Part shown: piece after piece, positions 19,762 to 37,268 of the stretch | Layout of the letters: each line of letters opens with the position of its first letter | Position numbering within the stretch: position 1 is the stretch's first letter | NCBI GenBank assembly: GCA_964600055.1 | Contig: CAZRID010000003.1 | Location: 1 to 37,268, forward strand | Source of the DNA: an uncultured Acidimicrobiaceae bacterium | GTDB taxonomy: Bacteria; Actinomycetota; Acidimicrobiia; Spongiisociales; ZC4RG35 | Reading direction: 5' to 3' | DNA: 37,268 bases | Notes under the pieces: model-generated | Told to the model about the DNA's origin: nothing | What the model saw: only the letters and a program-made list of their open reading frames with translations | The model's database searches: none | Position numbers and translations under genes: made by a program

Positions 19762-19840
19762 TGGGCCTGGTCCTGGTCCCCCCCTCGACCGCACTTCGTT
19801 GGCGGTCGGTCCCCCCGCTTCGCAAGGGGACAAACTCATC

Positions 19841-19870: not shown

Positions 19871-19890
19871 AGCAGGGCCCCGCTGCGCGG

Positions 19891-19990: not shown

Positions 19991-20016
19991 GGTATCAAGG
20001 CATACGTCCAACGAGG

Positions 20017-20118
20017 CGGAAGCTCCAACCGGCGTCTGTTTGCCCGAGACTGTGCAACACGCGTCACGTTGAACCTTCGAGTGCTGAGGGCTGGTCTCGG
20101 GCAAAGTCGCCCGGCAAT
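20017..20118 (+). repeat. REP/MITE-like hairpin-forming repeat, copy B2
   Basis: cggaagctccaACCGGCGTCTGTTTGCCCGAGACtgtgcaacacgcgtcacgttgaaccttcgagtGCTGAGGGCTGGTCTCGGGCAAAGTCGCCCGGCAA. The 12-bp inverted repeat is perfect. The unit ends 3 nt before the SDR stop codon. Confidence 0.7.
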
Positions 20119-20120
20119 AT

Positions 20121-20909
20121 TCAGGCCCCGATCATGTTGTAGCCACCGTCGGCGATGAGGTAGTTGCCGATCATGTGGGCGGCTTCGTCGGTGGCTAGGA
20201 AGAGGGCGGCGGCGGCCAGGTCTTGCGGTGGTGGGATCCGGCCCGCCGGGGTGGCAGCGATCAGCTTCTCCCTGCGACCTGTGTTCCAGTCTTCTCGGGC
20301 CAGGGTTGCGGCCGTCTCCATAAACCCGGGGGCAAAGGCATTGACCCGCACCGTCGGAGCGAAGGCGTTGGCGTAGGACTTGGTCAGCCCGAGCACTCCG
20401 TACTTCCCGGCGGCGTACTGGGGAGCCCGGGGGCTGCCCCGCACGATCACAGTCGAGCCGATGTTGATGATCGAGCCCGACCCCTGTTCGAGCATGCGGG
20501 TCCCGAACTCGTGATGCATGTAGAGGGTGCCCTTGATGTCGACGTCAAGGACCCGGTCGATGATCTCCTGGGTGATGTCGCGCCACGACATCTGCTCGGT
20601 GGCCACGTCACCCACGTTGTTCACCAGGACGTCGAGACCGCCGAACTCATCGAAGACGCCATCGGCCATGGCCCGCACCGCATCCCATGAGCTGATGTCG
20701 GCCTGGAAGACGGTGGCCTCGCCGCCGATGCCTCTCACCCTGTCGGCGGTGGCCTCCGCCCCGGCCTGAGATCGGTTGTAGTGGACCCCGACCCGGGCTC
20801 CCTCCTGTGCGGCGCGAAAAGCAATCGCACTCCCAAAACCGGTCCCGGCCCCGCTGACAAGGACGCTCTTGCCCTCAAAACGCTTGTAGATGGGGGATTT
20901 CTCTGTCAT
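20121..20909 (-). CDS. Short-chain dehydrogenase/reductase (SDR, FabG-like)
   Basis: ORF track gives 262 aa. Motifs present: VSGAGTGFGSAIA, LVNNVG, and the catalytic YAAGK. Confidence 0.9.
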   Translation of the reverse strand: MTEKSPIYKRFEGKSVLVSGAGTGFGSAIAFRAAQEGARVGVHYNRSQAGAEATADRVRGIGGEATVFQADISSWDAVRAMADGVFDEFGGLDVLVNNVGDVATEQMSWRDITQEIIDRVLDVDIKGTLYMHHEFGTRMLEQGSGSIINIGSTVIVRGSPRAPQYAAGKYGVLGLTKSYANAFAPTVRVNAFAPGFMETAATLAREDWNTGRREKLIAATPAGRIPPPQDLAAAALFLATDEAAHMIGNYLIADGGYNMIGA

Positions 20910-20990
20910 TTACCCTTCTCCCGGTCAGACCCTGCCTCGGGGGTTTTTCGCGATTGTCACGAAATCCATCGATGCTGCTTGCGACGATAG

Positions 20991-21008
20991 TTGATCAATG
21001 ATAATTTC
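20991..21008 (+). promoter_or_regulatory. AT-rich promoter/operator element, site 1 (TTGATCAATGATAATTTC)
   Basis: It lies in the divergent gap between the SDR (minus) and the SBP gene (plus), 27 nt before the TTG start. It is identical over 18 nt to site 2. The core is ATCAATGATAA and it contains the -10-like hexamer GATAAT. Confidence 0.55.
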
Positions 21009-21034
21009 GAGCCGGATCGAGGAGGAGGTACATC

Positions 21035-22780
21035 TTGCGATCTGAACACCCCTCACGTTTGAGGGTGTTGGCGGTGTTGCTCTGTCTGGCAATGGTCGCG
21101 GCGGCGTGCACGTCGGGCGAGACCGTTGACAGCACGACGACGGCACCGACCGACGACAATGGAGCCACCACGACGGCCGCGCCAGAAGACGGGGAAGGCG
21201 ACGGGGAAGGCGAAGAGGTAACCCGTCTCGTCTTCGGGGTCCCACCACCACCTGACGGTGAGTCGAACAACCCGAATCGTGAGATCCAGCCCAACGACGA
21301 GTATCAGCTCAAGCCGATGTACGAGAACCTGGTCGGGGTCGATCCCGAGAACGCCCAGTGGATCCCGATGCTGGCGGAGAGCTGGGAGCTCAACGAAGCC
21401 GGCGACCAACTCACCTTCCATTTGCGACAGGGAGTCCAGTTCCACAACGACTTCGGTGAGATGACAGCCGAAGACGTCGTCTTCTCGCTGACCGATCTCA
21501 TCGACCCGCCCGGGGCCATCTCCGGGGTGGCCGAAGCAGTGAGGAACGCTGTCGAGGAGTTCGAGATCGTCGACGACTACACGGTGATCTTCCACATCAC
21601 CGAAGGCGGGCTCAGCTTCTCCTTCTTCGAAGGCATCAGCTACGGCGCCGCCGGCACCGCGATCAAGAGCGCAGCGGATTGGGAGTCACGGGGCGGTGGA
21701 TCGCCCGCCTCGCCAACCCTGGACGAGGCCCCGATCGCAGGCACCGGCCCCTATCAGTTCCTCGAGCGGACCCCGGGCCAGAACGTCGTGTTCGAACGGG
21801 TCCCCGACGAGCATTGGCGGCAGGACGCCCAGTTCCAGGAGCTCGAGTACCGGTACATCCCCGAGGAGGCCACGCGGCTCTCCGCCCTCCTGGCGGGTGA
21901 GATCCAAATGACCGATCTCGCCATCGAACTCGGCGACGAGGCCGAGTCCCAGGGGATGGCGGTGATCAAGTCCACCCTGCCGGGCCGTCGCTACGGTCTG
22001 GCCCTGGAGGGGTGCTACTACGTGGAGCCGCCCCAGCCGGGTGCGTTGGCTGCCGACGTGTTCGTCAGCGGAGAGCGAAAGTTCCCGGACAGCCCGTGGT
22101 GCAACGAGGACATCCGTCGTGCTGCCTCGAAGGCCATCGACCGTGACGCCCTGAACGAGGCGTTCTACGGAGGAGAGGCCGAGACCGCGTTCACGTGGTA
22201 TTGGCTGCCGGAGCAGACCGAGTCCTGGAACCCGGACTGGGAGACCAGGTACGCCGAGGAAATCGGGTACGACCCCGAAGGGGCGAGTGCTCTCCTCGAA
22301 GGCGTCGGCGGAGAGGTCAGCATCCAGGTCTTCGCCAAGAACGACCTGAGCGAGGCGGTGGCCGTGATGCTCGAAGACGTCGGCTTCACCGTCGAGTTGG
22401 TCTCCATGGACGACGGCCAGTTCTCATCACAGCGCGAAGCGCGAGAGTTCGACCGGATGGTCGAGTTCGACGACACTGCGAGCGAGAACATCACCGGGTT
22501 CGAGCCGGCCGGCTATGGCAACCAGGACTCTGGTCGTGCCATCGAAACGGTCGAATGGGATACCCAGTACGAGGGAGTGCTGGTCGAGCTGGAGCCGGAG
22601 GCGCAGTCGGCGTTGTGGCTCGAGTTTGGGAATGTCATCTATGACAACATCCCCCAAATCCCGCTGCTCCGCACCTACAGCGAGACCGTGGTCAACCCTG
22701 ACGTGGTCTGTGGCTACCTGAACCCGGGGGCAAACATGAGCGCTCCCTACTCCTTCACCGAGTACATCGAGTCCTGCTGA
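21035..22780 (+). CDS. ABC transporter substrate-binding lipoprotein, family 5 (peptide/opine/nickel type)
   Basis: ORF track gives 581 aa. TTG start with a GAGGAGGAGG RBS 6 nt upstream. Lipobox: LCLAMVAAAC. The SBP_bac_5 hallmark is FHLRQGVQFHNDFGEMTAEDVVFS. Confidence 0.9.
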   Translation: MRSEHPSRLRVLAVLLCLAMVAAACTSGETVDSTTTAPTDDNGATTTAAPEDGEGDGEGEEVTRLVFGVPPPPDGESNNPNREIQPNDEYQLKPMYENLVGVDPENAQWIPMLAESWELNEAGDQLTFHLRQGVQFHNDFGEMTAEDVVFSLTDLIDPPGAISGVAEAVRNAVEEFEIVDDYTVIFHITEGGLSFSFFEGISYGAAGTAIKSAADWESRGGGSPASPTLDEAPIAGTGPYQFLERTPGQNVVFERVPDEHWRQDAQFQELEYRYIPEEATRLSALLAGEIQMTDLAIELGDEAESQGMAVIKSTLPGRRYGLALEGCYYVEPPQPGALAADVFVSGERKFPDSPWCNEDIRRAASKAIDRDALNEAFYGGEAETAFTWYWLPEQTESWNPDWETRYAEEIGYDPEGASALLEGVGGEVSIQVFAKNDLSEAVAVMLEDVGFTVELVSMDDGQFSSQREAREFDRMVEFDDTASENITGFEPAGYGNQDSGRAIETVEWDTQYEGVLVELEPEAQSALWLEFGNVIYDNIPQIPLLRTYSETVVNPDVVCGYLNPGANMSAPYSFTEYIESC

Positions 22781-22785
22781 GCCCC

Positions 22786-22835
22786 GGAAGACCTGTCGGC
22801 GTTGTCATCCCCAAGACGAAGCCGGCAGGTCTTCC
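22786..22835 (+). terminator. Intercistronic stem-loop after the SBP gene; a partial terminator or mRNA-stabilising hairpin
   Basis: ggaagacctg(tcggc)...(gccgg)caggtcttcc: a perfect outer 10-bp stem, followed by tcttcccc. Confidence 0.45.
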
Positions 22836-22876
22836 TCTTCCCCAAACCCCTCAACGACACCAGGAGGTGATCCTCT

Positions 22877-24190
22877 TTGCCGTCCGAACAGCCGGAGTGG
22901 CGTAAGAGCCTGCGCAAGAGACCTGCTCCCCTTCTCGAAGAGCCGGTCGCCATCAACACCGAGTTCGTCGCCCACACCCGGGTCGAAGGCCGGGCCGACG
23001 GGATCCAGCTCCAGTTCCAGACCGTCGGCGATCATCACTATCTGTACGTCGGCCACATCTGGTCCGGCGGGGTGAGCATCCTCGATGTGACCAATCCCGC
23101 CGACCCCCAGGTCGCCGCCTTCATCCCGGCCCCCAACGAGAGCACCAAGCACACCAAGGTCCAGGTGGCCGACGGCATCGCCATGATCGGTTGTGAGGCC
23201 CCGATGTTCGACCCACGGCCCGACCCGACCAAGGCCTGGCTCGGGGTCAGATTCTTCGATGTTTCGGATCCGACCGATCCCAAGGACCTCTCGTTTTGGG
23301 CCTCGGACCGGCCCGGCTTCGGGGTTCACCGCTCGTGGTGGAACGGTGGTCGTTACGCCTTCCTCTCCCACGGCGTGGCGGCCGAGGGCTTCATGTACGC
23401 CGGGCGTCCCGACCGCACCCGGATCATGACCACGCTCGACATCTCCGACCCGGAGAATCCGAAGCGGGTCTCCGACTTCTGGCTCCCGGTGCAGCGTGGC
23501 GAGGGCCGTCAGCCGGGGCCGGGGGAGACATTCGGGGTCCACGAGCCGGTGATCCACGGCGACCGGGCATATATCGCATACGCCGACGGTGGGTTCGCCA
23601 TCGCCGACATCTCCGACATCGAGAACCCGACCCTTGTCACCCACCAGTGGATCTTCCCCGAGCTGACCGACGGTCAGACCCACACGTGTGTCCCCTGGCC
23701 GGATCGTGACCTCCTAGTGGTCTCGGACGAGGCCATGGCCACGTTCGGTCTTGAAGGCGAGAAGAACATCATGATGTGGGATATCGCCGAGGAGACCGAT
23801 CCCAAGCTGCTATCGATGCTACCGATCCCGACCCCGACCGAGGACGAGCCATACGAGAGCTACTTCCACAAGGGTGAGCGCTTCGGCCCCCACGGGCTTC
23901 ACGACAACCACCAGGGGACGGCTCAGATCACCGACAAGGTGTACAACGCATATATGAACGCCGGTCTCCGGGTGTGGGACGTGTCCGACCCTTCCAACCC
24001 TGAGGAAACCGCATCCTTTGTTCCGGCTGATCCCACCGAGCAGGTCGATCCGAGACCGTACAACCGGATCGCCGACCCGTTGCGCGGCGGAACCCGCAAG
24101 GCCTGCAACCAGGACGTGGTCGTCGATCCACGTGGGTACATCTACCTGAGCGGCTACAACGACGGGATCTGGATCGTCAAGGAGAGTTGA
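22877..24190 (+). CDS. LVIVD-repeat beta-propeller protein A (no signal peptide; function unknown)
   Basis: ORF track gives 437 aa. TTG start with an AGGAGG RBS 9 nt upstream. It has about seven repeats of the type h-h-h-D-(V/I)-(S/T)-D-P-x-x-P: VSILDVTNPADP, VRFFDVSDPTDP, TTLDISDPENP, AIADISDIENP, MMWDIAEETDP, RVWDVSDPSNP. Confidence 0.85.
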   Translation: MPSEQPEWRKSLRKRPAPLLEEPVAINTEFVAHTRVEGRADGIQLQFQTVGDHHYLYVGHIWSGGVSILDVTNPADPQVAAFIPAPNESTKHTKVQVADGIAMIGCEAPMFDPRPDPTKAWLGVRFFDVSDPTDPKDLSFWASDRPGFGVHRSWWNGGRYAFLSHGVAAEGFMYAGRPDRTRIMTTLDISDPENPKRVSDFWLPVQRGEGRQPGPGETFGVHEPVIHGDRAYIAYADGGFAIADISDIENPTLVTHQWIFPELTDGQTHTCVPWPDRDLLVVSDEAMATFGLEGEKNIMMWDIAEETDPKLLSMLPIPTPTEDEPYESYFHKGERFGPHGLHDNHQGTAQITDKVYNAYMNAGLRVWDVSDPSNPEETASFVPADPTEQVDPRPYNRIADPLRGGTRKACNQDVVVDPRGYIYLSGYNDGIWIVKES

Positions 24191-24198
24191 CTCCCGGG

Positions 24199-24972
24199 AT
24201 GAACCAGCATTCGCCGGCCGAGACTGGTGTAGTCCTGGTCACCGGGGCTAGGAGAGGGATTGGCCGGGCGGTGGCCGAGCGGTTCCTGGTCGAGGGGTGG
24301 CAGGTGGCACTCAACGATGTCGACGGCGATGGACTCGGCGCCACATTCGAATCTCTCCTCGGCGATGGGCCATTGGTGAGCGCCCATCAGGCCGACGTCG
24401 GCGACCGGGCACAGGTGGAGAGGATGATCGAGGAGGTTCTCGAGGAGCACGGGCGTCTCGATGTCCTGGTGAACAACGCCGGGGCGATCCGGTTCTCCCC
24501 CTTCACCGAATACACCACGGCGGATTTCGAGTTGTCGGTGCGGACCAACCTGTTGGGGACCTTTCACTGCACACAGGCGACATCAAACCGGTGGATCACG
24601 TTGGGTGCCCCCGGCAGCATCATCAACATCTCCTCGGTGTCGGGGCGTCAGGCGCGTCCGGGGCACGTGGCATATGGGGCGAGCAAGGCGGGTGTGGAGA
24701 TGTTGTCCAAGGTGGCAGCCATGGAATTGGCGCCCTATGGGATCAGGGTCAACTGCGTCGCGCCGGGTGGGCCGATCATGACCGAGTTCGTCCAGCCTCT
24801 AGCCGAGAGACCCGGATTTCAGGAGCGGGTCCGGGCCACGGTCCCGATGGGCAGGACCGGTGAGCCCGAAGAGGTGGCCGGGGTGGTGTTCTTCCTCGCC
24901 TCCAAGGAGGCGTCATACATGACGGGGGCCGTCGTGGTGGTCGATGGTGGCGTCACACTGGGCCGTCCATGA
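24199..24972 (+). CDS. Short-chain dehydrogenase/reductase (SDR)
   Basis: The track ORF begins at TTG 24187, overlapping the upstream stop. I prefer ATG 24199, which has an AGGAGA RBS 13 nt upstream. Motifs present: VTGARRGIGRAV, LVNNAG, and the catalytic YGASK. Confidence 0.9.
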   Translation: MNQHSPAETGVVLVTGARRGIGRAVAERFLVEGWQVALNDVDGDGLGATFESLLGDGPLVSAHQADVGDRAQVERMIEEVLEEHGRLDVLVNNAGAIRFSPFTEYTTADFELSVRTNLLGTFHCTQATSNRWITLGAPGSIINISSVSGRQARPGHVAYGASKAGVEMLSKVAAMELAPYGIRVNCVAPGGPIMTEFVQPLAERPGFQERVRATVPMGRTGEPEEVAGVVFFLASKEASYMTGAVVVVDGGVTLGRP

Positions 24973-25027
24973 CAAACCACTGCTTCTCGCGAGCCAGAAC
25001 GGATTCCGGAGTCGTTTGACCGCAAAC

Positions 25028-25045
25028 TTGATCAATGATAATTTC
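25028..25045 (+). promoter_or_regulatory. AT-rich promoter/operator element, site 2 (TTGATCAATGATAATTTC)
   Basis: It is identical over 18 nt to site 1 and ends 18 nt before the ATG of LVIVD protein B. Confidence 0.55.
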
Positions 25046-25062
25046 CAAATCCAAGGAGGGCA

Positions 25063-26421
25063 ATGGCTGAGAAGCAACCGGAGTGGAAGAGCTGGATACG
25101 GCGGCGAGCGGCCACTCCCCTCCTTGAGCCCGTCGCCACCAACGTCGACATCGTCGGTTTCACCGGCATGGAAGGGCGTCTGGACGGACAGCAGCTCCAG
25201 TTCCAGACCGTGGGCGATCATCACTATCTCTACGTCGGTCATCCGTGGTCAGGGGGTGTGAGCGTCATCGACGTCACATCGCCCAAGGACCCCCAGGTGG
25301 CCGCCTTCATCCCCGCTCCCAACGAGCACACCTGGCACATCAAGATCCAGGTGGCCGACAACATCCTCATGACCTCATGTGAGGTCGCATTCTTCAAGCC
25401 CGGAGTTGATGCCTCCCAGGCCTGGGCCGGTGTCCGATTCTTCGATGTATCGGATCCAACCCAGCCCCGGGAGCTGTCACATTGGTCGGGCTCCGAACCC
25501 ACCGACTACGGGGTGCACCGCAGTTGGTGGAACGGCGGCCGCTACGCCTACCTTTCCAACATGATCGATGCCCCGGGCGTGAGCTATCACTGGCGCAAGG
25601 GCAGGACCCGGGTGATGACCATCCTGGATGTGTCCGATCCGGAGAGCCCCAAGCGCGTCTCCGATTTCTGGCATCCGGTGCAACTCGGTGAGGAGCCCGC
25701 GGCCCTGCCCGATGAGACGTTCGGCGTTCACTTCCCTCTGGTGGAGGGCAACCGTGCCTATGTCGCGTACTCGGATGGCGGCTTTGGCATCGTGGATGTC
25801 TCGGATCCCGAACATGCCACCCTGATCAGTCACGTGCGGACCTTCCCGGATCTCACCGACGGGCAGACACACACCTGTGTCCCTCTCACCGACCGCGGAA
25901 TCCTGGTGGTCTGCGAGGAGCCGATGGCCAACTACGGTCTCGAGGGACCGAAGAACATCCGGCTCTGGGATATCTCCGACGAGACCAACCCCACCGAGAT
26001 TTCGACCCTCCCCATTCCCGACCCCACCGATCGGGAGCCCTATCCCAGCTACTACCACAAGGGCGAGAGGTTCGGCCCCCACAACATGCACGAGAACCAT
26101 CAGGGAACCAAGCAGATCACCGACAAGGTCTACAACGCATATTTCAACGCAGGATTGAGGGTTTTCGACATCTCAGACCCGGCCCGTCCCGTTGAGACCG
26201 CATCATTCGTCCCCCCGACGCCGACGGAGTGGGTGGACCCACGCCCGTTCATGAGGATCTTCGACGTGATCCACGGTGGCGTGCGCGATGTCTGCAGCCA
26301 GGACGTCTTGGTCGACCCTCGCGGCTACATCTACCTGAGCGGTCTCAACGACGGGATTTGGATACTCGAGGAGACGAACTCAGCCGCCAACAACCCTGCT
26401 GGCTCGTCGAATGACGGCTGA
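25063..26421 (+). CDS. LVIVD-repeat beta-propeller protein B (close paralog of A; no signal peptide)
   Basis: ORF track gives 452 aa. It is collinear with A from the N-terminus (M-x-E-x-QPEW...QLQFQTVGDHHYLYVGH) to the C-terminus (VDPRGYIYLSG-x-NDGIWI), and by eye about two thirds of residues are identical. Confidence 0.85.
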   Translation: MAEKQPEWKSWIRRRAATPLLEPVATNVDIVGFTGMEGRLDGQQLQFQTVGDHHYLYVGHPWSGGVSVIDVTSPKDPQVAAFIPAPNEHTWHIKIQVADNILMTSCEVAFFKPGVDASQAWAGVRFFDVSDPTQPRELSHWSGSEPTDYGVHRSWWNGGRYAYLSNMIDAPGVSYHWRKGRTRVMTILDVSDPESPKRVSDFWHPVQLGEEPAALPDETFGVHFPLVEGNRAYVAYSDGGFGIVDVSDPEHATLISHVRTFPDLTDGQTHTCVPLTDRGILVVCEEPMANYGLEGPKNIRLWDISDETNPTEISTLPIPDPTDREPYPSYYHKGERFGPHNMHENHQGTKQITDKVYNAYFNAGLRVFDISDPARPVETASFVPPTPTEWVDPRPFMRIFDVIHGGVRDVCSQDVLVDPRGYIYLSGLNDGIWILEETNSAANNPAGSSNDG

Positions 26422-26448
26422 TCCCGAACGCCCGGGAGTGGCGCTCGC

Positions 26449-29717: not shown

Positions 29718-30901
29718 CAGCCCGGCCCACAACCGAGACCGATGCCCATCGGATGACGGTTGTCGGCCATATCGACCTCGACGGCAAGGGCGACGGTATG
29801 CACGTGAACGTGGTCGACGGGGTGGCCTACATGGGTCACATGGGTTACAACGACTTGGGGACCTCGATCATCGACGTCTCCGACCCTGCCCGCCCCAGCC
29901 TCATCACGCAGATCCAGAGACCGGAGGGAACCCATTCCCACAAGGTGCAGGTGATCGGGGACATCCTGCTCGTCAACCACGAGCGGAACCGCTTCGAGAA
30001 GGAGCCCCCGGGGAGCTGGAGTGCCGGTCTTGCCGTCTACGACGTGTCCGACCCGGCACATCCCAACCAGATCGGCTTCTACCCCACTCCAGGCGTGGGA
30101 GTGCACCGGATGACCTGGTGGGACGGTCCGTTTGCGTACGTAGCCGGCACCGATGAAGGCTATCGGGGGCGCTTCCTCCACATCGTCGATCTCTCCGATC
30201 CGACCCAACCAACTGCGGTGGGGCGTTGGTGGTACCCGGGCCAGCATGTAGGCGGTGGAGAGGAGCCTTCATGGACCGTGGGCAAGGAGCCAGGTCCGGG
30301 GGACGAGGGGCGGGAGTACGCCCTGCACCACGCCCTTCCCTATGGCGACCGCCTCTACGCCGGGTACTGGGATGCAGGTCTCGTGATCCTCGACACAAGC
30401 GACAAAGCCAACCCCAAGCTGGTGAGTCGGCTCACCTTTGGTCCCGAGAGCCGTAACACCCACACCGCGTTTCGTCTCCCGGGAAGGGACATCGTCCTCG
30501 TCACCGACGAGCAACTGACCCGGTGGATCGGTGTCCAGCGTCACGTTTGGGTGGTCGACGTCTCCGATGAGGCCAACCCGCAGCTGATCTCCAGGCTTCC
30601 GGTCCCTCACGGGGAGCGACACGCCGAGGGCGTGCGCTGGGGCCCGCACAACCTCCACGAGATGAGACCGGGGTCATTCGCGGACCCCAACCTGGTCTTT
30701 CTCACCTATTTCGGTGGTGGTCTCCGCGCCTATGACCTGACCGACCCTGTCAACCCGGTCGAGGCCGCGTATTTGGTGCCCCCAGCCCCAACAGGGAGGG
30801 ATTCGATCCAGTTCAACGACGTGACTGCCACCAAGGACGGGCTGGTGTACGTCAGCGATCGTCACGGCAACGGTCTCTACATCGTGGACCCGGGCCTGTG
30901 A
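29714..30901 (+). CDS. LVIVD-repeat beta-propeller protein C (divergent paralog of A and B; no signal peptide)
   Basis: ORF track gives 395 aa. There is an ATGA overlap with the amidohydrolase stop. Repeats present: SIIDVSDPARP, AVYDVSDPAHP, HIVDLSDPTQP, VILDTSDKANP, WVVDVSDEANP, RAYDLTDPVNP. Confidence 0.85.
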   Translation: MTARPTTETDAHRMTVVGHIDLDGKGDGMHVNVVDGVAYMGHMGYNDLGTSIIDVSDPARPSLITQIQRPEGTHSHKVQVIGDILLVNHERNRFEKEPPGSWSAGLAVYDVSDPAHPNQIGFYPTPGVGVHRMTWWDGPFAYVAGTDEGYRGRFLHIVDLSDPTQPTAVGRWWYPGQHVGGGEEPSWTVGKEPGPGDEGREYALHHALPYGDRLYAGYWDAGLVILDTSDKANPKLVSRLTFGPESRNTHTAFRLPGRDIVLVTDEQLTRWIGVQRHVWVVDVSDEANPQLISRLPVPHGERHAEGVRWGPHNLHEMRPGSFADPNLVFLTYFGGGLRAYDLTDPVNPVEAAYLVPPAPTGRDSIQFNDVTATKDGLVYVSDRHGNGLYIVDPGL

Positions 30902-30933
30902 GGAGGCCACGACGCACAACGGAACGGGAATAG

Positions 30934-31869
30934 ATGGCCCGCTACATCCTGATCAACACGGTGCGAGGCCTGCTCACCCTGTTCGCGGTGTCGATACTGG
31001 TGTTCTTCCTGGCCCGTCTCACCGGGGATCCCCTCGATGTGTTGGCGCCCGTCGACATGAGCCGGGAGGACGAGGAAGCGCTGCGTGCGAAGTGGGGTCT
31101 CGATCAGCCGTTGCCGCAGCAGTACATCGCGTTCCTGGGCAACGCGATGCAAGGGGAGTTCGGCCCGTCGTTCAAGTACCCCACCGAGACCGCCGGATCG
31201 GTTGTCCTCGACCGGTTGCCCAATTCGATAAAGCTCGGCGCGGTGGCAACGATCCTGACGCTCGTGATCGGAGTCCCCTTGGGCATTCTGTCCGCAGTCA
31301 AACGAGGATCCCTGGTTGATCGCGTCGCCAGGGGATTTGCCCTCTTCGGGCAGTCGGTCCCCGAGTTCTGGCTGGCGATCATCCTCATCTGGTTTGTTGC
31401 GGTGCGTTGGCACGTCGTCCCCACCTCCGGGATCACCGGATGGAAGAGCTACATCCTGCCCAGCATCGTCATATCCATCTTCGGCATCGCCGCACTGCTC
31501 CGTCTCTTCCGATCGGCGATGCTCGAGACGATGGGTAGTGAGTATGTGAAGCTCGCCCGGCTCAAGGGTTTGTCCGAGTCCAAGGTCGTTTGGAAGCATG
31601 CCTTGAAGCCGGCCTCGATCGCCCCGCTCACCTTCTTCGGCGGGATCGTGGTCCGCATGATCACCGGGGCCACGGTGGTCGAGATCGTTTTCTCATGGCC
31701 GGGCGCCGGCCTGCTCGCCTACGAAGCCGCCAACGCCAGAGATTTCCCGGTGGTCCAGGCGCTGGCATTGTTCACCGCGGCGGCGATCGTCATCATGAAT
31801 CTGCTGATCGACATCACCTATGCCTACCTGGACCCTCGGGTTCGCCTCGGGCAAAAGGCAGTCAGTTGA
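30934..31869 (+). CDS. ABC transporter permease (DppB/OppB-like)
   Basis: ORF track gives 311 aa. N-terminus: MARYILINTVRGLLTLFAVSILVFFL. The EAA-loop region is EYVKLARLKGLSESKVVWKHALKPA. Confidence 0.9.
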   Translation: MARYILINTVRGLLTLFAVSILVFFLARLTGDPLDVLAPVDMSREDEEALRAKWGLDQPLPQQYIAFLGNAMQGEFGPSFKYPTETAGSVVLDRLPNSIKLGAVATILTLVIGVPLGILSAVKRGSLVDRVARGFALFGQSVPEFWLAIILIWFVAVRWHVVPTSGITGWKSYILPSIVISIFGIAALLRLFRSAMLETMGSEYVKLARLKGLSESKVVWKHALKPASIAPLTFFGGIVVRMITGATVVEIVFSWPGAGLLAYEAANARDFPVVQALALFTAAAIVIMNLLIDITYAYLDPRVRLGQKAVS

Positions 31870-32813
31870 TGTCGCTGCGCAACCCGCCACGACCCGCTGG
31901 CGACTTCACGGGGGCGAACGAGACCCAACTCGACGAGTTCGGCCAGCCGAAGCGGCGGAGCCCGTGGCGTTGGGGACGCCGATCGAATCGCCTCCCATGG
32001 GTGTCGATCTTCATCGTCGTGGTGGTTCTGATCCTGCCCGCACTTTTCGCCGACCTGATCACCAGTCACGACCCGTTGCGTGGTGTGCTGGCAGATCGTC
32101 TCATCCCCCCGGCGTGGTCAGACGGCGGATCGCTCACATATCCGCTGGGCACCGACAAGCAGGGCCGTGACATCCTGACCAGGATGATCTACGGGGCAAG
32201 GATCTCGCTCACGGTTTCGAGTCTGACCATCCTCATCGGGGCGGTTGTCGGTTCCACGCTCGGTCTGCTTGCCGGGTACTACGGGGGTTGGATCGACCGG
32301 ACCGTGAGCTGGCTCATCGACACGTTTCTCTCACTGCCGCACGTCCTTCTCGCTCTGGTCATCGTTGCCGCGATCGGCCCATCCTTCGTGACAATCATCG
32401 CAATCATCGCCGTCACCATCTGGGCAAGCTTCGCCCGGCAGGTTCGTGGGGAGACCCTCAGCGTCAGGGAGACCGAGTACGTGGCCAGGGCCAGGGTTGC
32501 AGGAGCATCGTCGTGGCGGATACTCCTGCGTCATGTCCTGCCCAACGTGGCCAACACTCTCATCGTCCTGGCCACGCTCCAGGTTGGGGTGGTGATCCTG
32601 GAGGAGTCGTCTCTGAGCTTCATCGGCGCCGGGATCCCACGGCCAAACCCGAGCTGGGGCGTCATGGTCGCCGACGGCCGGGATCAGATCCTCACCGCGT
32701 GGTGGATCTCCTTCTTCCCCGGACTGGCCATCCTGCTCGTTGTGCTGTCCCTGAACCTGATGGGTGATTGGCTGCGTGACTTCCTCGACCCCAAGATGAG
32801 ACAGAGGCAATGA
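31869..32813 (+). CDS. ABC transporter permease (DppC/OppC-like)
   Basis: This is in frame within track ORF 31590..32813. ATG 31869 overlaps the upstream TGA by 1 nt. Motifs present: PLGTDKQGRDILTRMIYGAR and EYVARARVAGASSWRILLRHVLPN. Confidence 0.88.
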   Translation: MSLRNPPRPAGDFTGANETQLDEFGQPKRRSPWRWGRRSNRLPWVSIFIVVVVLILPALFADLITSHDPLRGVLADRLIPPAWSDGGSLTYPLGTDKQGRDILTRMIYGARISLTVSSLTILIGAVVGSTLGLLAGYYGGWIDRTVSWLIDTFLSLPHVLLALVIVAAIGPSFVTIIAIIAVTIWASFARQVRGETLSVRETEYVARARVAGASSWRILLRHVLPNVANTLIVLATLQVGVVILEESSLSFIGAGIPRPNPSWGVMVADGRDQILTAWWISFFPGLAILLVVLSLNLMGDWLRDFLDPKMRQRQ

Positions 32814-33850
32814 CTTCCCCCACCATCGGCAAGGGACCGGCGACAGACTCGACGGCCAAGGCCTCACCGGTTCTCGAAGTCCGGAACCTGTCCACCTATT
32901 TGTTCACACGATGGGGGACCACCAAAGCGGTCGATGGCGTGTCGCTTCATCTCGACGCCGGCGAGACGCTGGGGATCGTCGGCGAGTCGGGAAGCGGGAA
33001 GAGCATGCTTGCACTCTCGATGGTCCGCCTCACCCCTGAGCCGGCGAGCCGGACCGTCGCGGGCCAGGTGATGCTCAATGGCCGTGACCTCCTGGCCCTG
33101 TCCGAGAAACAGATGCGCGCGGTCAGGGGCAAAGAGATCTCGATGATCCTCCAGGACCCACAGCAGTCGCTGAACCCTGTGTTCTCGGTCGGCAACCAGC
33201 TGGGCGAGGCAATACGGGTCCACGACCGCAGTTTGAGCGACAAGGAAGCCCTGAACCGCTCGGTGGAGGCTCTGAAAAGCGTGCAGGTCCCCGCACCCGA
33301 GAGGAGGCTTCGCAACTTCCCCCATCAGCTCAGCGGCGGCATGAAGCAACGCATCGTCGGAGCGATGGCGATGGCGTATCAGCCCCAGGTCCTGATCGCC
33401 GACGAGCCGACCACGGCTCTCGACGTGACGATCCAGGCGCAATATCTGCGGCTGCTCAAGGATCTTCAGGCTCGAACCGGAGTGGGGATCATCCTGATCA
33501 CACACGACTTCGGCGTGATTGCCGAGGCCTGCGACCGGGTGGCCGTCATGTACGCCGGGCGGATCGTCGAACAGGCCCCTGTCGCAGAGATATTCGATCG
33601 CCCGCAGCACCCTTACACCAGGGCCCTGCTCGACTCCCGTCCCCGATTCGACACCAAATCGACGCGGCTCAAGTCGATCGAGGGCCAACCACCGTCACTG
33701 AACGATCTCCCCGAAGGTTGCCGGTTCGCGGCCCGGTGCTCCTACGCAATCGATCGATGCGAGGACGAGTACCCGCCTACATTCCTGGCAAGCGAAGAGC
33801 ACGTCGCTGCCTGCTGGAGAAGCGAGGAGGCGCCGTGGGCAACCCATTGA
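32810..33850 (+). CDS. ABC transporter ATP-binding protein (DppD/OppD-like)
   Basis: ORF track gives 346 aa, with an ATGA overlap at the start. Walker A is GESGSGKS, the signature is LSGGMKQR, Walker B is LIADEPTTALD, and there is a C-terminal oligopeptide-type extension (HPYTRALL...CRFAARC). Confidence 0.93.
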   Translation: MTSPTIGKGPATDSTAKASPVLEVRNLSTYLFTRWGTTKAVDGVSLHLDAGETLGIVGESGSGKSMLALSMVRLTPEPASRTVAGQVMLNGRDLLALSEKQMRAVRGKEISMILQDPQQSLNPVFSVGNQLGEAIRVHDRSLSDKEALNRSVEALKSVQVPAPERRLRNFPHQLSGGMKQRIVGAMAMAYQPQVLIADEPTTALDVTIQAQYLRLLKDLQARTGVGIILITHDFGVIAEACDRVAVMYAGRIVEQAPVAEIFDRPQHPYTRALLDSRPRFDTKSTRLKSIEGQPPSLNDLPEGCRFAARCSYAIDRCEDEYPPTFLASEEHVAACWRSEEAPWATH

Positions 33851-34812
33851 TGGTGGTCGAGGGTCTCAGCAAGCACTACCCGGTATCCGAAGGACAGTAC
33901 GGCGGCAAGACGATCGGTCACGTTCGAGCGGTCGACGATGTCAGCTTCACCATCGACCGGGGCAAGACCCTGGCCCTGGTCGGTGAGTCCGGTTGTGGCA
34001 AGACCACCACCGCCCGCCTCGTCCTCCGGCTTCGAACTCCGACGGCAGGCATTGTCACCCTCGATGACAGGGACGTGCACCAGCTCAGTGGGGCGGATCT
34101 GAAATGGTTCCGCACCTGTGTCCAGGCGGTATTTCAGGATCCATGGGCCTCCCTGAGCCCGCGGATGCGGGTGCGAGACATCGTGGCCGAGCCCCTGGTG
34201 GTCAATCGGAGGATCTCAAAGGACGAGGTCCGTGAGAGGGTGGGCGCCACCCTGGAGAAGGTCGGCATGCAGCGATGGCAGGGCGATCTCTTCCCACACG
34301 AATTCAGCGGTGGCCAGCGACAGCGAGTGGCTCTCGCCAGCGCATTGATCACAGAGCCCCGTCTCCTCGTTCTCGACGAGCCGGTATCGGCGCTCGACGT
34401 CTCGGTCCAGGCACAGGTGATGAATCTTCTCAAGGACATACAGGCCGACCTCGGGACCGCGTTCCTACTGATATCCCATGACCTGGCGACCGTGCGATAT
34501 GTAGCCGATCAGGTTGCCGTGATGTATATGGGCAGCATCGTCGAGATCGGCGATGTGGAACAGATATTCGAGGCCCCGAGACACCCCTATACCCGGGGGC
34601 TCTTCGAATCTGCACTCCCGATGCATCCCCGGGACCGACAACCCGAGTTGAAGATCCATGGCGAGACACCCAGCCCACTCGACCCACCGTCGGGGTGCCG
34701 ATTCCGCACACGCTGCCAACACGCCATGGAGATATGTGCCCAGACCCCGCCGGTCACCGAGGTCGATCCGGGGCATATGGTTTCGTGTCATCTGTACCCG
34801 GAGGCCGGTTGA
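33835..34812 (+). CDS. ABC transporter ATP-binding protein (DppF/OppF-like)
   Basis: This is in frame within track ORF 33718..34812. GTG 33835 lies just after a GAGGAGG RBS, and ATG 33850 is an alternative start. Walker A is GESGCGKT, the signature is FSGGQRQR, and Walker B is [11 protein letters not shown]. Confidence 0.9.
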
Positions 34813-34850
34813 AACGGGTCCTACGACCAGAGGTCGATAGGGATGACGGA

Positions 34851-34869
34851 TGTTATCATTGATATTTGC
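34851..34869 (+). promoter_or_regulatory. AT-rich promoter/operator element, site 3 (TGTTATCATTGATATTTGC; core inverted relative to sites 1 and 2)
   Basis: It contains TTATCATTGAT, the reverse complement of the ATCAATGATAA core of sites 1 and 2. The pseudo-palindrome is TATCA-T-TGATA. It ends 22 nt before ATG 34891. Confidence 0.5.
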
Positions 34870-34890
34870 TAGCGATTGAGGGGATCCTCC

Positions 34891-36093
34891 ATGCTGGACC
34901 ACGACCAGGTGTGGACCGGAGACATAAACAAGGTTGCAGCCGACGACGCCCTGCGGCGCAGCGTCGGCATCTACGACACGACATTGCGCGACGGTGAGCA
35001 AACCGTGGGTGTCGCCCTCGATCCCGAGGCCAAGCTCGAGATCGCGCTGGCTCTGGACAGACTCGGTGTGCAGCGAATCGAGGCCGGTTTTCCACGGGTT
35101 TCCGCCGATGATGTCCGGGCATTCGAGTTGATCATGGCCGCCGGGCTCGACGCCGAGATCTGGGGTTTCTCGCGGGCAGTGCCCGCCGACGTCGAGCAAC
35201 TCGTGAGTCTCGGTGTCGGTGCCGCAGTGATCGAAGCGCCGGTGAGCGACGGCAAGCTGTCCGCATACGGCTTGAACCGGGAGGTGGTCACCGAACGGGT
35301 GGTCAACGCCGTCAGGTACGCCGTGGACAACGGGATCACCGTGTGTTTCTTCGGCGTAGATGGCAGCCGGGCCGACATCGCCTTCCTCGAACAGATCTAC
35401 ACGGCCGCCGTCGAGGCCGGGGCCAAGGAGATCGCGCTGGTCGACACTCTGGGGATCGCAGCCCCGGAGGCGGTGGCGAACCTGGTCAGGACAGCTCGAA
35501 CCTGGGTCGGTGACGAGCATCCGATTCATTGGCACGGGCACGACGACTTCGGATTGGCGACGGCGGGTTCCATCGAAGCCGTCCGCGCCGGCGCCGATTG
35601 GGTTCAAGGGACGATCAACGGCATGGGTGAGCGGGCCGGCAACACCGATCTGGCCGAGTTCGCCATTGCCATCGAAGCGATCTACGGCGCCGAGACGTCG
35701 CTCCGTCTCGAGCTGATCACAGAGGTGGCAAATACAGTTCAGCGTCTCTCCGGATACGATCTCGCGCCGTGGAAGCCGGTCACCGGGCGCAATCTCTTCA
35801 TACGTGAGAGCGGGGCGGTGGCGGCTCAATTCCACGATCCGATGGCGATCGAGCCCTATTCGTCCACCCTGGTCGGTGCCCGGCGCGGTCTGGTGCTCGG
35901 CAAGAAGAGCGGGCTACCCAGCATCAAGATCAAGAGCGACGAGTTGGGCCTCGACCTTCCCGAGAAGTTCCACGCCGGTCTTCTCCAACAGGTGAAGGAT
36001 CGGGCCATTCGCAATGGAGGGCTGGTTTCCGATGAGCAGTTCGTGGAGATGGCGACCCAGGTCGCTTCCTCGGTGGACGGGGCCGGCTCCTGA
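34891..36093 (+). CDS. DRE-TIM metallolyase of the 2-isopropylmalate/homocitrate/citramalate synthase family (short form)
   Basis: The track ORF starts at TTG 34876. I prefer ATG 34891, which has a GAGGGGA RBS 6 nt upstream. Motifs present: YDTTLRDGEQ, IEAGFP, HWHGHDDFGLATA, NGMGERAGN. Confidence 0.88.
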   Translation: MLDHDQVWTGDINKVAADDALRRSVGIYDTTLRDGEQTVGVALDPEAKLEIALALDRLGVQRIEAGFPRVSADDVRAFELIMAAGLDAEIWGFSRAVPADVEQLVSLGVGAAVIEAPVSDGKLSAYGLNREVVTERVVNAVRYAVDNGITVCFFGVDGSRADIAFLEQIYTAAVEAGAKEIALVDTLGIAAPEAVANLVRTARTWVGDEHPIHWHGHDDFGLATAGSIEAVRAGADWVQGTINGMGERAGNTDLAEFAIAIEAIYGAETSLRLELITEVANTVQRLSGYDLAPWKPVTGRNLFIRESGAVAAQFHDPMAIEPYSSTLVGARRGLVLGKKSGLPSIKIKSDELGLDLPEKFHAGLLQQVKDRAIRNGGLVSDEQFVEMATQVASSVDGAGS

Positions 36094-36271
36094 CCAGGAC
36101 AACCGGAGACCGTGGCGCTTCCAGCCCGGGTCCCGGGATGTGCGCCCCCTATCATGACGGAGTCCCGAATGGTGTGCACTCTCGGGGTCTCCGTTGGCAC
36201 ATCCTCGGGCCGGTACACATGCCTATCGCGGTTTTGCCACGCGAGCACCGCCAACGAACGAGGAGAGTCTG

Positions 36272-36982
36272 ATGCCTTTGCGCCCCGGTGACGGCGCCCG
36301 CACTCTGGCCGACGTCGCCCTCGCCGAGCTTCGCGAGGCAATCGTCTCCGGCGAGATACCGCCCGGGTCGCCAATCAGGCTTCAGGAGTACGTCGACCGG
36401 CTGTCGATGAGCACGGTGCCGATTCGAGAGGCATTGCGCTTTCTCGAGCAGAAGGGGCTCATCGAACGCCGACCTCATCGTGGTGTCATTGTTTGCGAGA
36501 TGTCTGCAACCGATCTCGAAGACACCTACAAGATCCGGCTCGATCTCGAGTCGATGGCCGTTCGCATGGCTGTCCCCCGCATCAAGGAGAAGGACCGGAT
36601 CTTCCTGCTGGGGCTTGTCGACGAGTATGAAGCTGCCCTTCGGGCCGACAACGGCAGCGCTCCCGACGTGCACACCAAGCTCCACATGTCGATCTATGAG
36701 TACGCCGACTCGCGCTGGCTCCGTCTCCTCCTTCCCTCTCTGTGGGACAACAGCGAGCGCTACCGGCGGCTTCAGATCCCGGTCCGGGGCACCATCGAGC
36801 AAAGGGTCGAGGAGCATCGGCTGCTGGTCGAGGCTTGCGCTTCAGGTGATTCCGACGTTGCCGCCAAGGAGCTCCAGGCCCATCTCAGCCGGACCATGGT
36901 CGGCGCCATCGCCCTGCTTCGTGAGCAGGAGGGAACCATGGCCCTGGCAGCCGACACCGCGGCAAAGGCCACCGGCAGTTAG
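36272..36982 (+). CDS. GntR-family transcriptional regulator, FadR/FCD subfamily
   Basis: I moved the start to ATG 36272, which has an AGGAGA RBS. The wHTH is LADVALAELREAIVSGEIPPGSPIRLQEYVDRLSMSTVPIREALRFLEQKGLI, and the C-terminal domain is all-helical and FCD-like. Confidence 0.88.
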   Translation: MPLRPGDGARTLADVALAELREAIVSGEIPPGSPIRLQEYVDRLSMSTVPIREALRFLEQKGLIERRPHRGVIVCEMSATDLEDTYKIRLDLESMAVRMAVPRIKEKDRIFLLGLVDEYEAALRADNGSAPDVHTKLHMSIYEYADSRWLRLLLPSLWDNSERYRRLQIPVRGTIEQRVEEHRLLVEACASGDSDVAAKELQAHLSRTMVGAIALLREQEGTMALAADTAAKATGS

Positions 36983-37061
36983 CCGACGGCAGACCAGGCT
37001 CCCACCCGATTCTGCTACGTTTGATCAAAGCTCAAATCTTTCAGGTCTGTGGAGGAAAGCC

Positions 37062-37268
37062 ATGAAATTGGTCACGTTCGACGGAGGCAAGGTCGGTCAC
37101 ATCGAGGACGACTTGATCGTCGAGTACGACGTCCCCAGCATGCGCACCTATTTCGAGCGTGGGGCCGATGTGGGGCGCACCGGGCAGACGTACTCGCTGG
37201 CCGATGTGAAGCTCGAGGCGCCGATCATCCCCAAGAAGTTTTTCCACACCGCCGGCAACTACAAGGAG
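37062..37268 (+). CDS. Fumarylacetoacetate hydrolase (FAH) family protein, N-terminal fragment (continues past the right window edge)
   Basis: It is not in the ORF track because the end is open. My translation from ATG 37062 (GGAGGA RBS) is MKLVTFDGGKVGHIEDDLIVEYDVPSMRTYFERGADVGRTGQTYSLADVKLEAPIIPKKFFHTAGNYKE. The P-x-K-x-F-x-x-x-GNY context is typical of FAH-family N-terminal regions. Confidence 0.75.
   Translation, partial: MKLVTFDGGKVGHIEDDLIVEYDVPSMRTYFERGADVGRTGQTYSLADVKLEAPIIPKKFFHTAGNYKE

Follow-up and report, generated by a model that had tools for sequence, protein, structure and literature searches.

We analysed a 37,268-nucleotide (nt) stretch of DNA from an uncultured Acidimicrobiaceae bacterium (contig CAZRID010000003.1, forward strand; hereafter the window), in which positions 20121-37268 carry three genes for LVIVD-repeat propeller proteins among genes for enzymes, a regulator and a transporter. 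These 17 kb are a conserved regulon of an Acidimicrobiia-type actinobacterium that combines uptake with catabolism under shared control; the genes, for a Dpp-type ABC importer and for eleven enzymes and regulators, are spread over four or more transcription units. Genes were called from an open reading frame (ORF) listing together with Pfam and NCBIfam scans of the window, with the following result.

20121-20909, minus strand: SDR1, an SDR-family oxidoreductase, divergent from the SBP gene (Pfam adh_short_C2, E=1e-47)
21035-22780, plus strand: SBP, a family-5 (Dpp/Opp-type) solute-binding lipoprotein (Pfam SBP_bac_5, E=6e-52)
22877-24190, plus strand: LVIVD-A, a predicted seven-bladed propeller of the long subfamily (Pfam LVIVD, 49.3 bits)
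24187-24972, plus strand: SDR2, an SDR-family oxidoreductase whose start overlaps the LVIVD-A stop (Pfam, E=3e-67)
25063-26421, plus strand: LVIVD-B, a propeller of the long subfamily (Pfam LVIVD, 63.7 bits)
26449-28716, plus strand: large subunit of a molybdenum (Mo) hydroxylase (Pfam Ald_Xan_dh_C, MoCoBD_1 and MoCoBD_2)
28713-29717, plus strand: Amidohydro_2 protein, hereafter amidohydrolase_2, of the aminocarboxymuconate-semialdehyde decarboxylase (ACMSD) clade (Pfam, E=4e-37)
29714-30901, plus strand: LVIVD-C, a predicted seven-bladed propeller of the short subfamily (Pfam LVIVD, 82.4 bits)
30934-31869 and 31869-32813, plus strand: permeases of the Dpp/Opp-type importer (Pfam BPD_transp_1)
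32810-33850 and 33850-34812, plus strand: ATPases of the Dpp/Opp-type importer (Pfam ABC_tran and oligo_HPY)
34876-36093 (start likelier at 34891), plus strand: DRE-TIM enzyme (HMGL-like; homocitrate/isopropylmalate synthase-like) without a regulatory domain (Pfam HMGL-like, E=9e-63)
36272-36982, plus strand: GntR/FCD transcription factor (Pfam GntR and FCD)
37064-37268, plus strand: 68 N-terminal codons of a gene for an FAH-family enzyme that continues beyond the window (translation and the orthologue in contig L004)

The gene order agrees with that given in an initial annotation made from the letters alone, as the Pfam and NCBIfam scans bore out every gene in 20121-37268 except the FAH fragment, which itself had no Pfam match. 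The FAH call is based on the sequence of the 68-amino-acid (aa) fragment and on its FAA_hydrolase orthologue in L004, which is full-length and occupies the corresponding position. For the HMGL-like gene, the probable start is the ATG at 34891, which follows a GAGGGGA ribosome-binding site. Stop-start overlaps (ATGA or TGATG) are present at 28713, 29714, 31869 and 32810, the junctions listed in the initial annotation, as well as at 33850, with TTGA at 24187. The stretch had also been called an island. We rejected horizontal acquisition, given that the GC content (0.61-0.67 across the window) is the same in 20121-37268 as in the flanks, that there are no tRNA genes in the window and that Pfam scans of the larger window ORFs detected no mobility genes; "island" is therefore better read as "gene cluster". 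Rfam returned nothing in the window, and a scan of the window for sigma-70 promoters and terminators gave results at or below chance.

An AT-rich element had been described as repeated between the units, and four copies of it were found. Two of them, at 20991 and 25028, match the 18-mer TTGATCAATGATAATTTC exactly; the copy at 34852 is related to it and that at 37021 is degenerate. Given here without strand, the copies are placed as follows.

20991-21008: motif copy 1 (TTGATCAATGATAATTTC, core ATCAATGAT), in the divergent SDR1/SBP intergenic region, and in the same place in L004 and L007
25028-25045: motif copy 2, upstream of LVIVD-B
34852-34869: motif copy 3 (core ATCATTGAT), upstream of the HMGL-like gene
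37021-37038: motif copy 4, degenerate, ahead of the FAH gene; L004 has a complete match at the orthologous site

The 37-kb window has three occurrences of the palindromic core ATCAWTGAT versus 0.21 expected, and none of 100 shuffles contained as many as three. Copies lie 15-45 nt 5´ of the ribosome-binding sites of the first genes (SBP, LVIVD-B, HMGL-like and FAH) and recur at the same positions in orthologous clusters (four sites in L004, three in L007), while the remaining 1.27 Mb of fetched loci held a single match. By its recurrence and placement the AT-rich element is a predicted cis-regulatory palindromic motif that is conserved, and its presence in the window only ahead of these units, as well as at orthologous sites, marks the cluster as a regulon with four or more transcription units. 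For its regulator, the GntR/FCD protein encoded in the cluster is the obvious candidate, a link that we infer; the motif is without the classic GT-N-AC core. The stem-loop noted initially after the SBP gene was also found, as an inverted repeat on the plus strand (22786-22835; 21-nt arms, 86% complementary, with an 8-nt loop), and may set the level of the SBP mRNA relative to the downstream genes.

Comparison of gene neighbourhoods revealed a near gene-for-gene version of the cluster in four Acidimicrobiia contigs from metagenome-assembled genomes (MAGs; L004, L007, L008 and L009) and a rearranged version in Phytohabitans kaempferiae (L001) and the metagenome contig L006. The LVIVD, CoxL-like, amidohydrolase_2 and Dpp-type transporter genes, which the initial annotation had regarded as parts of one system, are syntenic in these other genomes. 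Both rearranged versions additionally encode the flavin adenine dinucleotide (FAD; CoxM) and 2Fe-2S (CoxS) subunits of the Mo enzyme, two SDRs, one or two FAH enzymes, a CMD-family protein and an IclR regulator, and both propeller subfamilies, long and short, are present in Phytohabitans. Orthologues of SDR1 were found in L001, L004 and L006-L009, with 67-87% identity across the cluster variants; the HMGL-like DRE-TIM gene is restricted to the Acidimicrobiia versions. The order of a long-subfamily propeller followed by a Mo subunit recurs in about 10 metagenome loci, and LVIVD-B always precedes the Mo-enzyme gene. No description of the system was found in the literature searched, as the initial annotation had supposed.

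All three propellers score above the gathering threshold of Pfam LVIVD (PF08309; 20.2 bits). The initial annotation had described them as three paralogs; three are indeed present, but they split into two subfamilies, with LVIVD-A and LVIVD-B 65% identical to each other (long form) and LVIVD-C (short form) about 33% identical to both. None of the three has a possible start codon upstream of its start or a hydrophobic N-terminus, in keeping with the earlier view that they lack signal peptides, and all three are predicted to be cytoplasmic. Secreted or surface LVIVD proteins were rejected as an explanation on the same grounds. LVIVD-C contains no Cys residues, and its more than 2,500 homologues are all about 390 aa long and labelled "hypothetical" or "LVIVD repeat-containing". 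In the AlphaFold 2 models of LVIVD-C (pLDDT 90.6) and LVIVD-B (pLDDT 83.7), seven sets of four strands form a seven-bladed propeller, the fold predicted with high confidence for these LVIVD proteins.

The wider family is large. A profile search of 1.84 billion representatives returned 37,430 proteins at E<=1e-3 and 1,834 (clusters at 50% identity) at E<=1e-30, a mix of single propellers of about 400 aa and giant multi-repeat surface proteins. Canonical LVIVD-repeat surface proteins, from Methanosarcina and others, are very large, secreted or surface-located and composed of many tandem repeats (PMC2447325). They share the PF08309 repeat signature with the proteins described here, and giant multi-repeat proteins came up in the same profile search, whereas LVIVD-A, B and C are single propellers of 390-450 residues, predicted to be cytoplasmic and with a conserved polar hub. 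For LVIVD, PF08309, COG5276 or IPR013211, the literature searched held no function, only a description of the repeat and incidental mentions.

A profile of LVIVD-C relatives was compared with PDB sequences using hmmsearch, and the sole family below E=0.1 was Sb-PTE, the "haloalkylphosphorus hydrolase" of Sphingobium sp. TCM1 (PDB 5HRM, 5IOJ), matched over the whole length at E=4e-14. An hhalign comparison of 77 family members with Sb-PTE gave a probability of 99.65% (E=3.7e-24, 24% identity over 340 columns). Sb-PTE (5HRM) was likewise the top Foldseek match of LVIVD-C (E=7e-16) and LVIVD-B (E=2e-16), with other propellers at about 1e-8 to 1e-9. In the reverse check, the sole Pfam match of Sb-PTE was LVIVD, with a sub-threshold 16 bits, so the link to the LVIVD family goes unannotated. 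On these sequence comparisons, the LVIVD propellers are distant homologues of the binuclear-Mn phosphotriesterase Sb-PTE, the only specific relative found. The statement in the initial annotation that the family has no assigned function holds for the literature searched, but the family is not wholly without precedent, and membership in a characterised enzyme family, which had been named as a point that would count against a new role, applies in part through this distant homology.

Alongside the shared seven-bladed fold, there are clear differences from Sb-PTE. The identity to the propellers here is 17-24%, and they are about 100-190 residues shorter and predicted to be cytoplasmic. Sb-PTE, which we take to be 583 residues long with three disulfides, has deposited chains of 504 and 591 residues; LVIVD-C is without Cys. 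The genes here lie in catabolic operons, not in a phosphorus-scavenging context. Other propeller enzymes with a catalytic metal atop the central channel, namely the six-bladed PON1, SMP30, XylC, DFPase and Rpa3624 and the seven-bladed PL22, are more distant still, belonging to other Pfam families without detectable sequence relationship and with Foldseek scores no better than those of generic WD40 propellers.

The binuclear Mn site of Sb-PTE reportedly comprises E201 (bridging), H389, H475, E407, H258 and H317, and these residues, together with four disulfide cysteines, match the PDB sequence at those numbers. Across 77 LVIVD homologues with 36-100% identity, H42, E90, H131, R132, H205, H250, E266, H312, R338 and D369 are each kept in at least 75. 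H131, H250 and H315 align with the Sb-PTE ligands H258, H389 and H475, and the invariant E266 falls one residue from E407; most metal-ligand positions of Sb-PTE thereby appear to coincide with family-invariant His or Glu. In contrast to Sb-PTE, the LVIVD family has the extra invariant residues H42, E90, R132, H312, R338 and D369. In the strand pattern of the LVIVD-C model, D27, H76, H131, H205, H250, H312 and D369 are distributed one per blade on the innermost strand (D27 immediately before it). The invariant site residues are kept in LVIVD-A, B and C alike. The three proteins are probably cytoplasmic metal-dependent enzymes of the Sb-PTE lineage, with an active site that is related but not identical. 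That the propellers are catalytic metalloproteins within the catabolic regulon we regard as very likely, and the invariant His/Glu/Asp/Arg constellation makes catalysis, already suspected in the initial annotation, the most likely role.

The second conserved element of the cluster is the pairing of LVIVD-C with amidohydrolase_2. The latter aligns with human ACMSD over the full length (E=1e-53) with a single one-residue gap. The ACMSD metal ligands (H6 and H8 of the HxH motif, H174 and D291) are conserved, as are the equivalents of the catalytic H224 and of Arg235. In human numbering, Arg47, Arg235 and Trp191 bind the ACMSD substrate; here Arg47 aligns with Gly48 and Trp191 with Asn. Other relatives in the PDB include LigW, the gamma-resorcylate, 2,3-dihydroxybenzoate, salicylate and uracil-5-carboxylate decarboxylases, LigY and LigJ. 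NCBIfam gave no match for amidohydrolase_2, and its homologues carry only automatic names ("aminocarboxymuconate-semialdehyde decarboxylase", "amidohydrolase family protein"). It is a probable metal-dependent decarboxylase or hydratase of the ACMSD clade, with a substrate that would differ from that of ACMSD. Examination of the window and of 85 related loci revealed neither 3-hydroxyanthranilate dioxygenase (HAO) nor aminomuconate-semialdehyde dehydrogenase. A true ACMSD in a kynurenine pathway was rejected because both the substrate residues and the partner genes are missing.

A homologue of amidohydrolase_2 lies within 10 kb of an LVIVD-C homologue in 39 of the 85 loci, and in 30 of these 39 the two genes are directly adjacent and co-directional, in either order: amidohydrolase_2 is upstream in clusters of the window type and downstream in a second clade of about 45% identity. 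In the window itself, the amidohydrolase_2 (28713-29717) and LVIVD-C genes overlap and are translationally coupled. Judged from this gene order, amidohydrolase_2 and LVIVD-C form what appears to be a conserved functional pair. The arrangement resembles the tight pairing of ACMSD with HAO in the kynurenine and 2-nitrobenzoate pathways, in that amidohydrolase_2 has a constant upstream or downstream partner; it differs in that no HAO, aminomuconate semialdehyde dehydrogenase or deaminase is nearby and that the partner is a propeller, not a cupin. In the literature searched, three points appear to be new: a large branch of cytoplasmic LVIVD propellers within catabolic operons, their conserved pairing with an ACMSD-like enzyme, and their link to Sb-PTE, Sb-PTE itself and catabolic regulons being already known.

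The remaining proteins of the cluster are assigned more broadly. The Mo subunit is of the form-II CoxL, quinoline oxidoreductase and glyceraldehyde dehydrogenase-like type, with PDB relatives CoxL, Qor and Kdh. Its best NCBIfam match is glyceraldehyde dehydrogenase alpha (E=4e-157, below the cutoff), and the carbon monoxide (CO) dehydrogenase models are below their cutoffs as well. A CO dehydrogenase (form I CoxL) was rejected since the active-site loop reads PYRGAGR, with the form-II motif YRGAGR in place of AYxCSFR. The large subunit of the Mo hydroxylase in the initial annotation is thus present, but Pfam scans found neither the FAD (M) nor the 2x[2Fe-2S] (S) partner subunit in the 37-kb window; both adjoin the orthologous L subunit in L001 and L006. 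The SBP N-terminus has a hydrophobic signal and a Cys lipobox. SDR2 falls in the broad "glucose 1-dehydrogenase" subfamily of NCBIfam (231 bits, cutoff 215) with a generic enzyme as its nearest PDB relative, and the nearest PDB relatives of SDR1 are generic FabG-like enzymes. Among PDB sequences, the DRE-TIM enzyme matches homocitrate synthase (E=1e-49). The FAH orthologue in L004 has L-2,4-diketo-3-deoxyrhamnonate hydrolase (LRA6; 8gsr) as its best PDB match (E=8e-43). The cluster FAH enzymes score 164-187 bits against the LRA6 equivalog of NCBIfam (cutoff 500), and also resemble the HpcE/HpaG decarboxylase-isomerases.

The gene contexts of the wider propeller family provide further clues. 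In the second clade of LVIVD-C homologues, the neighbours encode LacI, MFS, alpha/beta-hydrolase, zinc-dependent alcohol dehydrogenase, creatininase-family hydrolase, M24 and GFO/IDH/MocA proteins, as well as NAD_binding_2, 2-hydroxyacid dehydrogenase, FAH, DHDPS-family, galactarate/altronate dehydratase and CMD proteins. Relatives of the long propellers with 46-58% identity, one of them in a Nitrososphaerales archaeon (L092 9504-10802; others in L093 and L111-L119), occur in a compact module comprising an XRE-cupin regulator, the propeller, a 2-keto-3-deoxy-acid aldolase of the GarL/HpaI/RhmA type, an acyl/acetyl-CoA ligase and a CUT2 sugar ABC transporter. The XRE-cupin regulator is found only in the bacterial loci, with none in L092, and no known dehydratase or lactonase is encoded in the module. 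A 97-aa protein with a weak DUF3764 match often lies 3´ of the propeller there.

Proteobacterial plasmid homologues (about 38% identity) in Erwinia and Rahnella stand beside sugar-binding proteins and an oxidoreductase, and a Shinella homologue has a sugar ABC transporter, an MR/MLE enzyme and a GntR protein as neighbours. On plasmid pRspNXC24a of Rhizobium sp. NXC24 (L088 11977-13224), a 39%-identical propeller has an ABC transporter on one side and an SfnB-family sulfur-acquisition oxidoreductase on the other, a context that hints at a branch of the family working in sulfur scavenging. Also present at this locus are a 2-oxoglutarate/Fe oxygenase, a pyridoxal-phosphate enzyme of the transsulfuration type and, a few kb off, a PhnD/SsuA-family binding protein. 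In Mycolicibacterium agri (L039), an uncultured Mycobacteriaceae MAG (L055) and M. stellerae (L064), tandem LVIVD genes follow an NMT1/SsuA-like ABC transporter and adjoin an IorB-type Mo subunit, a 2Fe-2S subunit, a CMD-family protein and an amine-oxidase-like flavoprotein. Since the IorAB-type Mo enzyme of these loci is non-orthologous to that of the window, the association of propellers with Mo enzymes is a recurrent one.

Based on these contexts, we tentatively favour the view that the cluster acts on a polar organic acid, which may well be a carbohydrate-derived acid, lactone or conjugate. The carbohydrate part of this reading comes from the recurrence, among the neighbours, of GarL/HpaI aldolases, CUT2 transporters, galactarate/altronate dehydratase, LacI, GFO, DHDPS and LRA6-like FAH proteins. 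A recurring theme is that of enzymes that make or consume 2-oxo, 4-hydroxy-2-oxo or 2,4-dioxo acids (GarL/HpaI, DRE-TIM, DHDPS and FAH); sugar-type transporters and regulators accompany them, often without a canonical lactonase or dehydratase. The same enzyme classes are known from the non-phosphorylative sugar pathways (LRA1-6 for L-rhamnose and L-fucose, Weimberg/Dahms, the archaeal branched Entner-Doudoroff pathway and GarD-GarL-GarR): SDRs, amidohydrolase_2, FAH and a class-II aldolase-type enzyme are all encoded here, there is an aldehyde-oxidoreductase-like Mo subunit, and relatives of the propellers lie beside GarL/HpaI-type aldolases, GarR-like reductases and GarD/UxaA-type dehydratases. 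The cluster differs from these pathways in that its transporter is of the Dpp type, its amidohydrolase_2 belongs to a decarboxylase clade and its NCBIfam scores are below cutoffs. Moreover, by the Pfam domains detected in 20121-37268, it encodes neither a canonical lactonase (SMP30, 6PGL-type or COG3618) nor a dehydratase of the enolase-superfamily, IlvD/EDD or UxaA kind.

Under this scheme, most economically read as an oxidative, non-phosphorylative pathway, the propellers would carry out a metal-dependent opening of a lactone or ester or a beta-eliminative dehydration of a carboxylated substrate, and the ACMSD-like enzyme would decarboxylate or hydrate the product. SDR1, SDR2 and FAH could form a dehydrogenase and diketo-hydrolase branch and the DRE-TIM enzyme an aldolase-type branch, and the 2-oxo, 2,4-dioxo or 4-hydroxy-2-oxo acids so formed would be converted by these two branches. 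The Mo enzyme might oxidise a released aldehyde or hydroxylate an intermediate, and repression of the regulon by the GntR/FCD protein, exerted at the TTATCA-N-TGATAA-like operator, would be lifted once this protein binds an intermediate. The oligogalacturonate lyase PL22, a cytoplasmic enzyme that beta-eliminates next to a carboxylate, gives a mechanistic precedent for the propellers as dehydratases or lyases. Known phosphotriesterase families are moreover thought to have derived from lactonases. Among the six-bladed SMP30-family propeller hydrolases, several combine lactonase and phosphotriesterase activities (PMC9843451). Overlap and descent together make a hydrolase or lyase role for the LVIVD propellers plausible.

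Several observations count against the carbohydrate-acid scheme, or at least limit how far it can be pressed. In the active site, the LVIVD family has Thr or Ser at position 73, which aligns with the bridging Sb-PTE ligand E201, and methods based on hidden Markov models align no His with H317, for which H205, the residue that opens the inner strand of the equivalent blade, is a plausible match; the site may accordingly differ from that of Sb-PTE in metal number and chemistry. The amidohydrolase_2 belongs to an ACMSD/LigW/gamma-resorcylate decarboxylase clade that is typical of (hetero)aromatic acids, and it gave no match to the sugar-lactonase clade (LigI, fuconolactonase-type) in the PDB at E<1e-3. 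The Mo subunit is equally near to the quinoline- and nicotine-pathway hydroxylases and to aldehyde oxidoreductases, while the similarities of SDR1 and SDR2 are generic. The usual cargo of Dpp-type binding proteins is peptides, opines or oligosaccharides, and the PDB search returned no close characterised relative of the SBP. NCBIfam yielded no above-cutoff equivalog for any cluster enzyme, the matches that name a reaction being far below cutoffs. Finally, the informative contexts are those of relatives at 35-58% identity and may not carry over to the window cluster.

The strongest competing explanation is close to the suggestion of N-heterocycle degradation in the initial annotation. In an N-heteroaromatic or aromatic-acid pathway, the Mo enzyme would hydroxylate a ring, the propeller would open it with a His-rich Fe(II)/Mn site at its axis, as in carotenoid-cleavage oxygenases, the ACMSD-like enzyme would decarboxylate the fission product (compare HAO and ACMSD), and FAH and the DRE-TIM enzyme would finish a lower pathway of the meta-cleavage type. 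The full-length ACMSD match and the aromatic-acid decarboxylases, LigY and LigJ among the other relatives of amidohydrolase_2 speak for such a route, as do the proximity of the Mo subunit to quinoline 2-oxidoreductase and 6-hydroxypseudooxynicotine dehydrogenase, the complete CoxLMS, IclR and CMD genes in L001 and L006 and the HpcE/HpaG-like features of FAH. With no canonical ring-cleavage enzyme encoded, that role would be free for the propellers, which have five invariant His on successive inner strands. However, no oxygenase, Rieske protein or flavin monooxygenase is conserved with the LVIVD/amidohydrolase_2 pair, and the sole characterised propeller homologue is a hydrolase. Furthermore, the Arg47 and Trp191 of ACMSD are not conserved, and the DRE-TIM enzyme is nearer to homocitrate and isopropylmalate synthases than to DmpG-type aldolases. 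The contexts of the wider family, with mostly sugar-type regulators and transporters, aldolases and sugar-acid dehydratases, favour metabolism of the sugar-acid or lactone type instead, and we consider aromatic degradation unlikely.

Far less probable is a function in organosulfur metabolism, with the propellers as thiol or sulfide oxidases (like SBP56/methanethiol oxidase) or as hydrolases of sulfate or sulfonate esters. Some propeller homologues carry precomputed PF05694 (SBP56) matches, and the propellers themselves have weak NCBIfam matches to methanethiol oxidase MtoX, yet the latter are marginal (E 1e-4 to 1e-5 over 24-56 residues) and Sb-PTE is far closer than the SBP56 structure 2ECE in the PDB. 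Sulfur-related neighbours are seen in parts of the family, namely SfnB and the PhnD/SsuA-family protein by the Rhizobium plasmid homologue, a 2-phosphosulfolactate phosphatase gene nearby in Rahnella, and TauE-family exporters near the cluster in L004 and in nine LVIVD-C loci, but neither the window nor most orthologous clusters have TauE, and Pfam found no desulfonating or sulfur-oxidising enzyme in the window cluster. We judge it just as improbable that the propellers are non-catalytic, serving as cytoplasmic ligand-binding, scaffold or chaperone subunits for the Mo subunit or amidohydrolase_2: most propellers in the PDB match lists are interaction modules, complex formation could also account for their tight translational coupling to enzyme genes, and the Mo large subunit is without its usual partners in the window, but the propellers are kept where CoxM and CoxS are present, their invariant His/Glu/Asp/Arg set on the inner strands overlaps the Sb-PTE ligands across 36-100% identity, and the long-propeller clade, accompanied by no more than an aldolase, a CoA ligase and a transporter, looks like a minimal pathway in need of one more enzyme.

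Returning to carbohydrate-derived acids, a broader and more doubtful version of the proposal may be considered. Single-domain cytoplasmic LVIVD propellers could constitute a large, so far unrecognised metalloenzyme superfamily that supplies the missing lactonase or dehydratase (or another ring-opening) step in the non-phosphorylative catabolism of acid sugars and lactones in Actinomycetota, Chloroflexota, Pseudomonadota and Nitrososphaerales. They would often form an obligate pair with an ACMSD-like decarboxylase, and would be the natural ancestors of the xenobiotic phosphotriesterase Sb-PTE.

Other features were observed in the window outside the cluster. Four paralogous proteins of 377-411 aa (379-1512, 1509-2645 and 2624-3835 on the minus strand and 6854-8089 on the plus strand) are 36-66% identical and have no Pfam match; their hydrophobic N-terminal halves suggest multiple membrane spans, and they flank a BTAD/AAA/TPR (AfsR/SARP-like) regulator at 4046-6820 on the plus strand. 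The AT skew of the plus strand is unusually high (0.24-0.34) over positions 1-4000. A 469-aa protein without a Pfam match, followed by a LuxR-type response regulator, is encoded at 8491-10550. The region 12342-17750 contains a DmpA-like peptidase S58 (minus strand), a class-III aminotransferase, a histone-deacetylase-family amidohydrolase and an S9 prolyl-oligopeptidase-family protein, and this run of hydrolases and an aminotransferase may be a catabolic set of the beta-peptide or polyamine type. Downstream of a histidine kinase (17897-19363), an ORF at about 19370-19762 on the plus strand, which ends ...GTYVFSCRIVAEDDEGNLRDHYEEGMHRTVVVG, looks like a small secreted cupredoxin-like protein. 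The intergenic region 19846-20114, between the upstream stop at about 19762 and the 3´ end of SDR1, has three copies of a 29-nt unit (ACCGGCGTCTGTTTGCCCGAGACTG.GCA) and two copies of a 41-nt unit, with spacings of 60 and 122 nt. Tandem Repeats Finder scored nothing for the repeats at 19.3-20.3 kb, which may be repetitive extragenic palindromic (REP)-like or miniature inverted-repeat transposable element (MITE)-like.

If the LVIVD propellers are enzymes, a family of about 1,800 clusters (50% identity, E<=1e-30), plus many more distant members, has no known natural reaction, its members being now labelled "hypothetical" or "LVIVD repeat-containing" or assumed by default to be surface proteins. 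The cultured Phytohabitans kaempferiae version of the cluster, the pair of propeller and ACMSD-like enzyme, and the module of propeller, GarL-type aldolase, CoA ligase and sugar transporter offer experimental entry points. Knowing the reaction would reveal the natural origin of a phosphotriesterase for man-made flame retardants and could explain pathways that seemingly are without a lactonase or dehydratase. It would also fill gaps in carbon-flux models for the abundant uncultured Acidimicrobiia and Chloroflexota of soil and sea.

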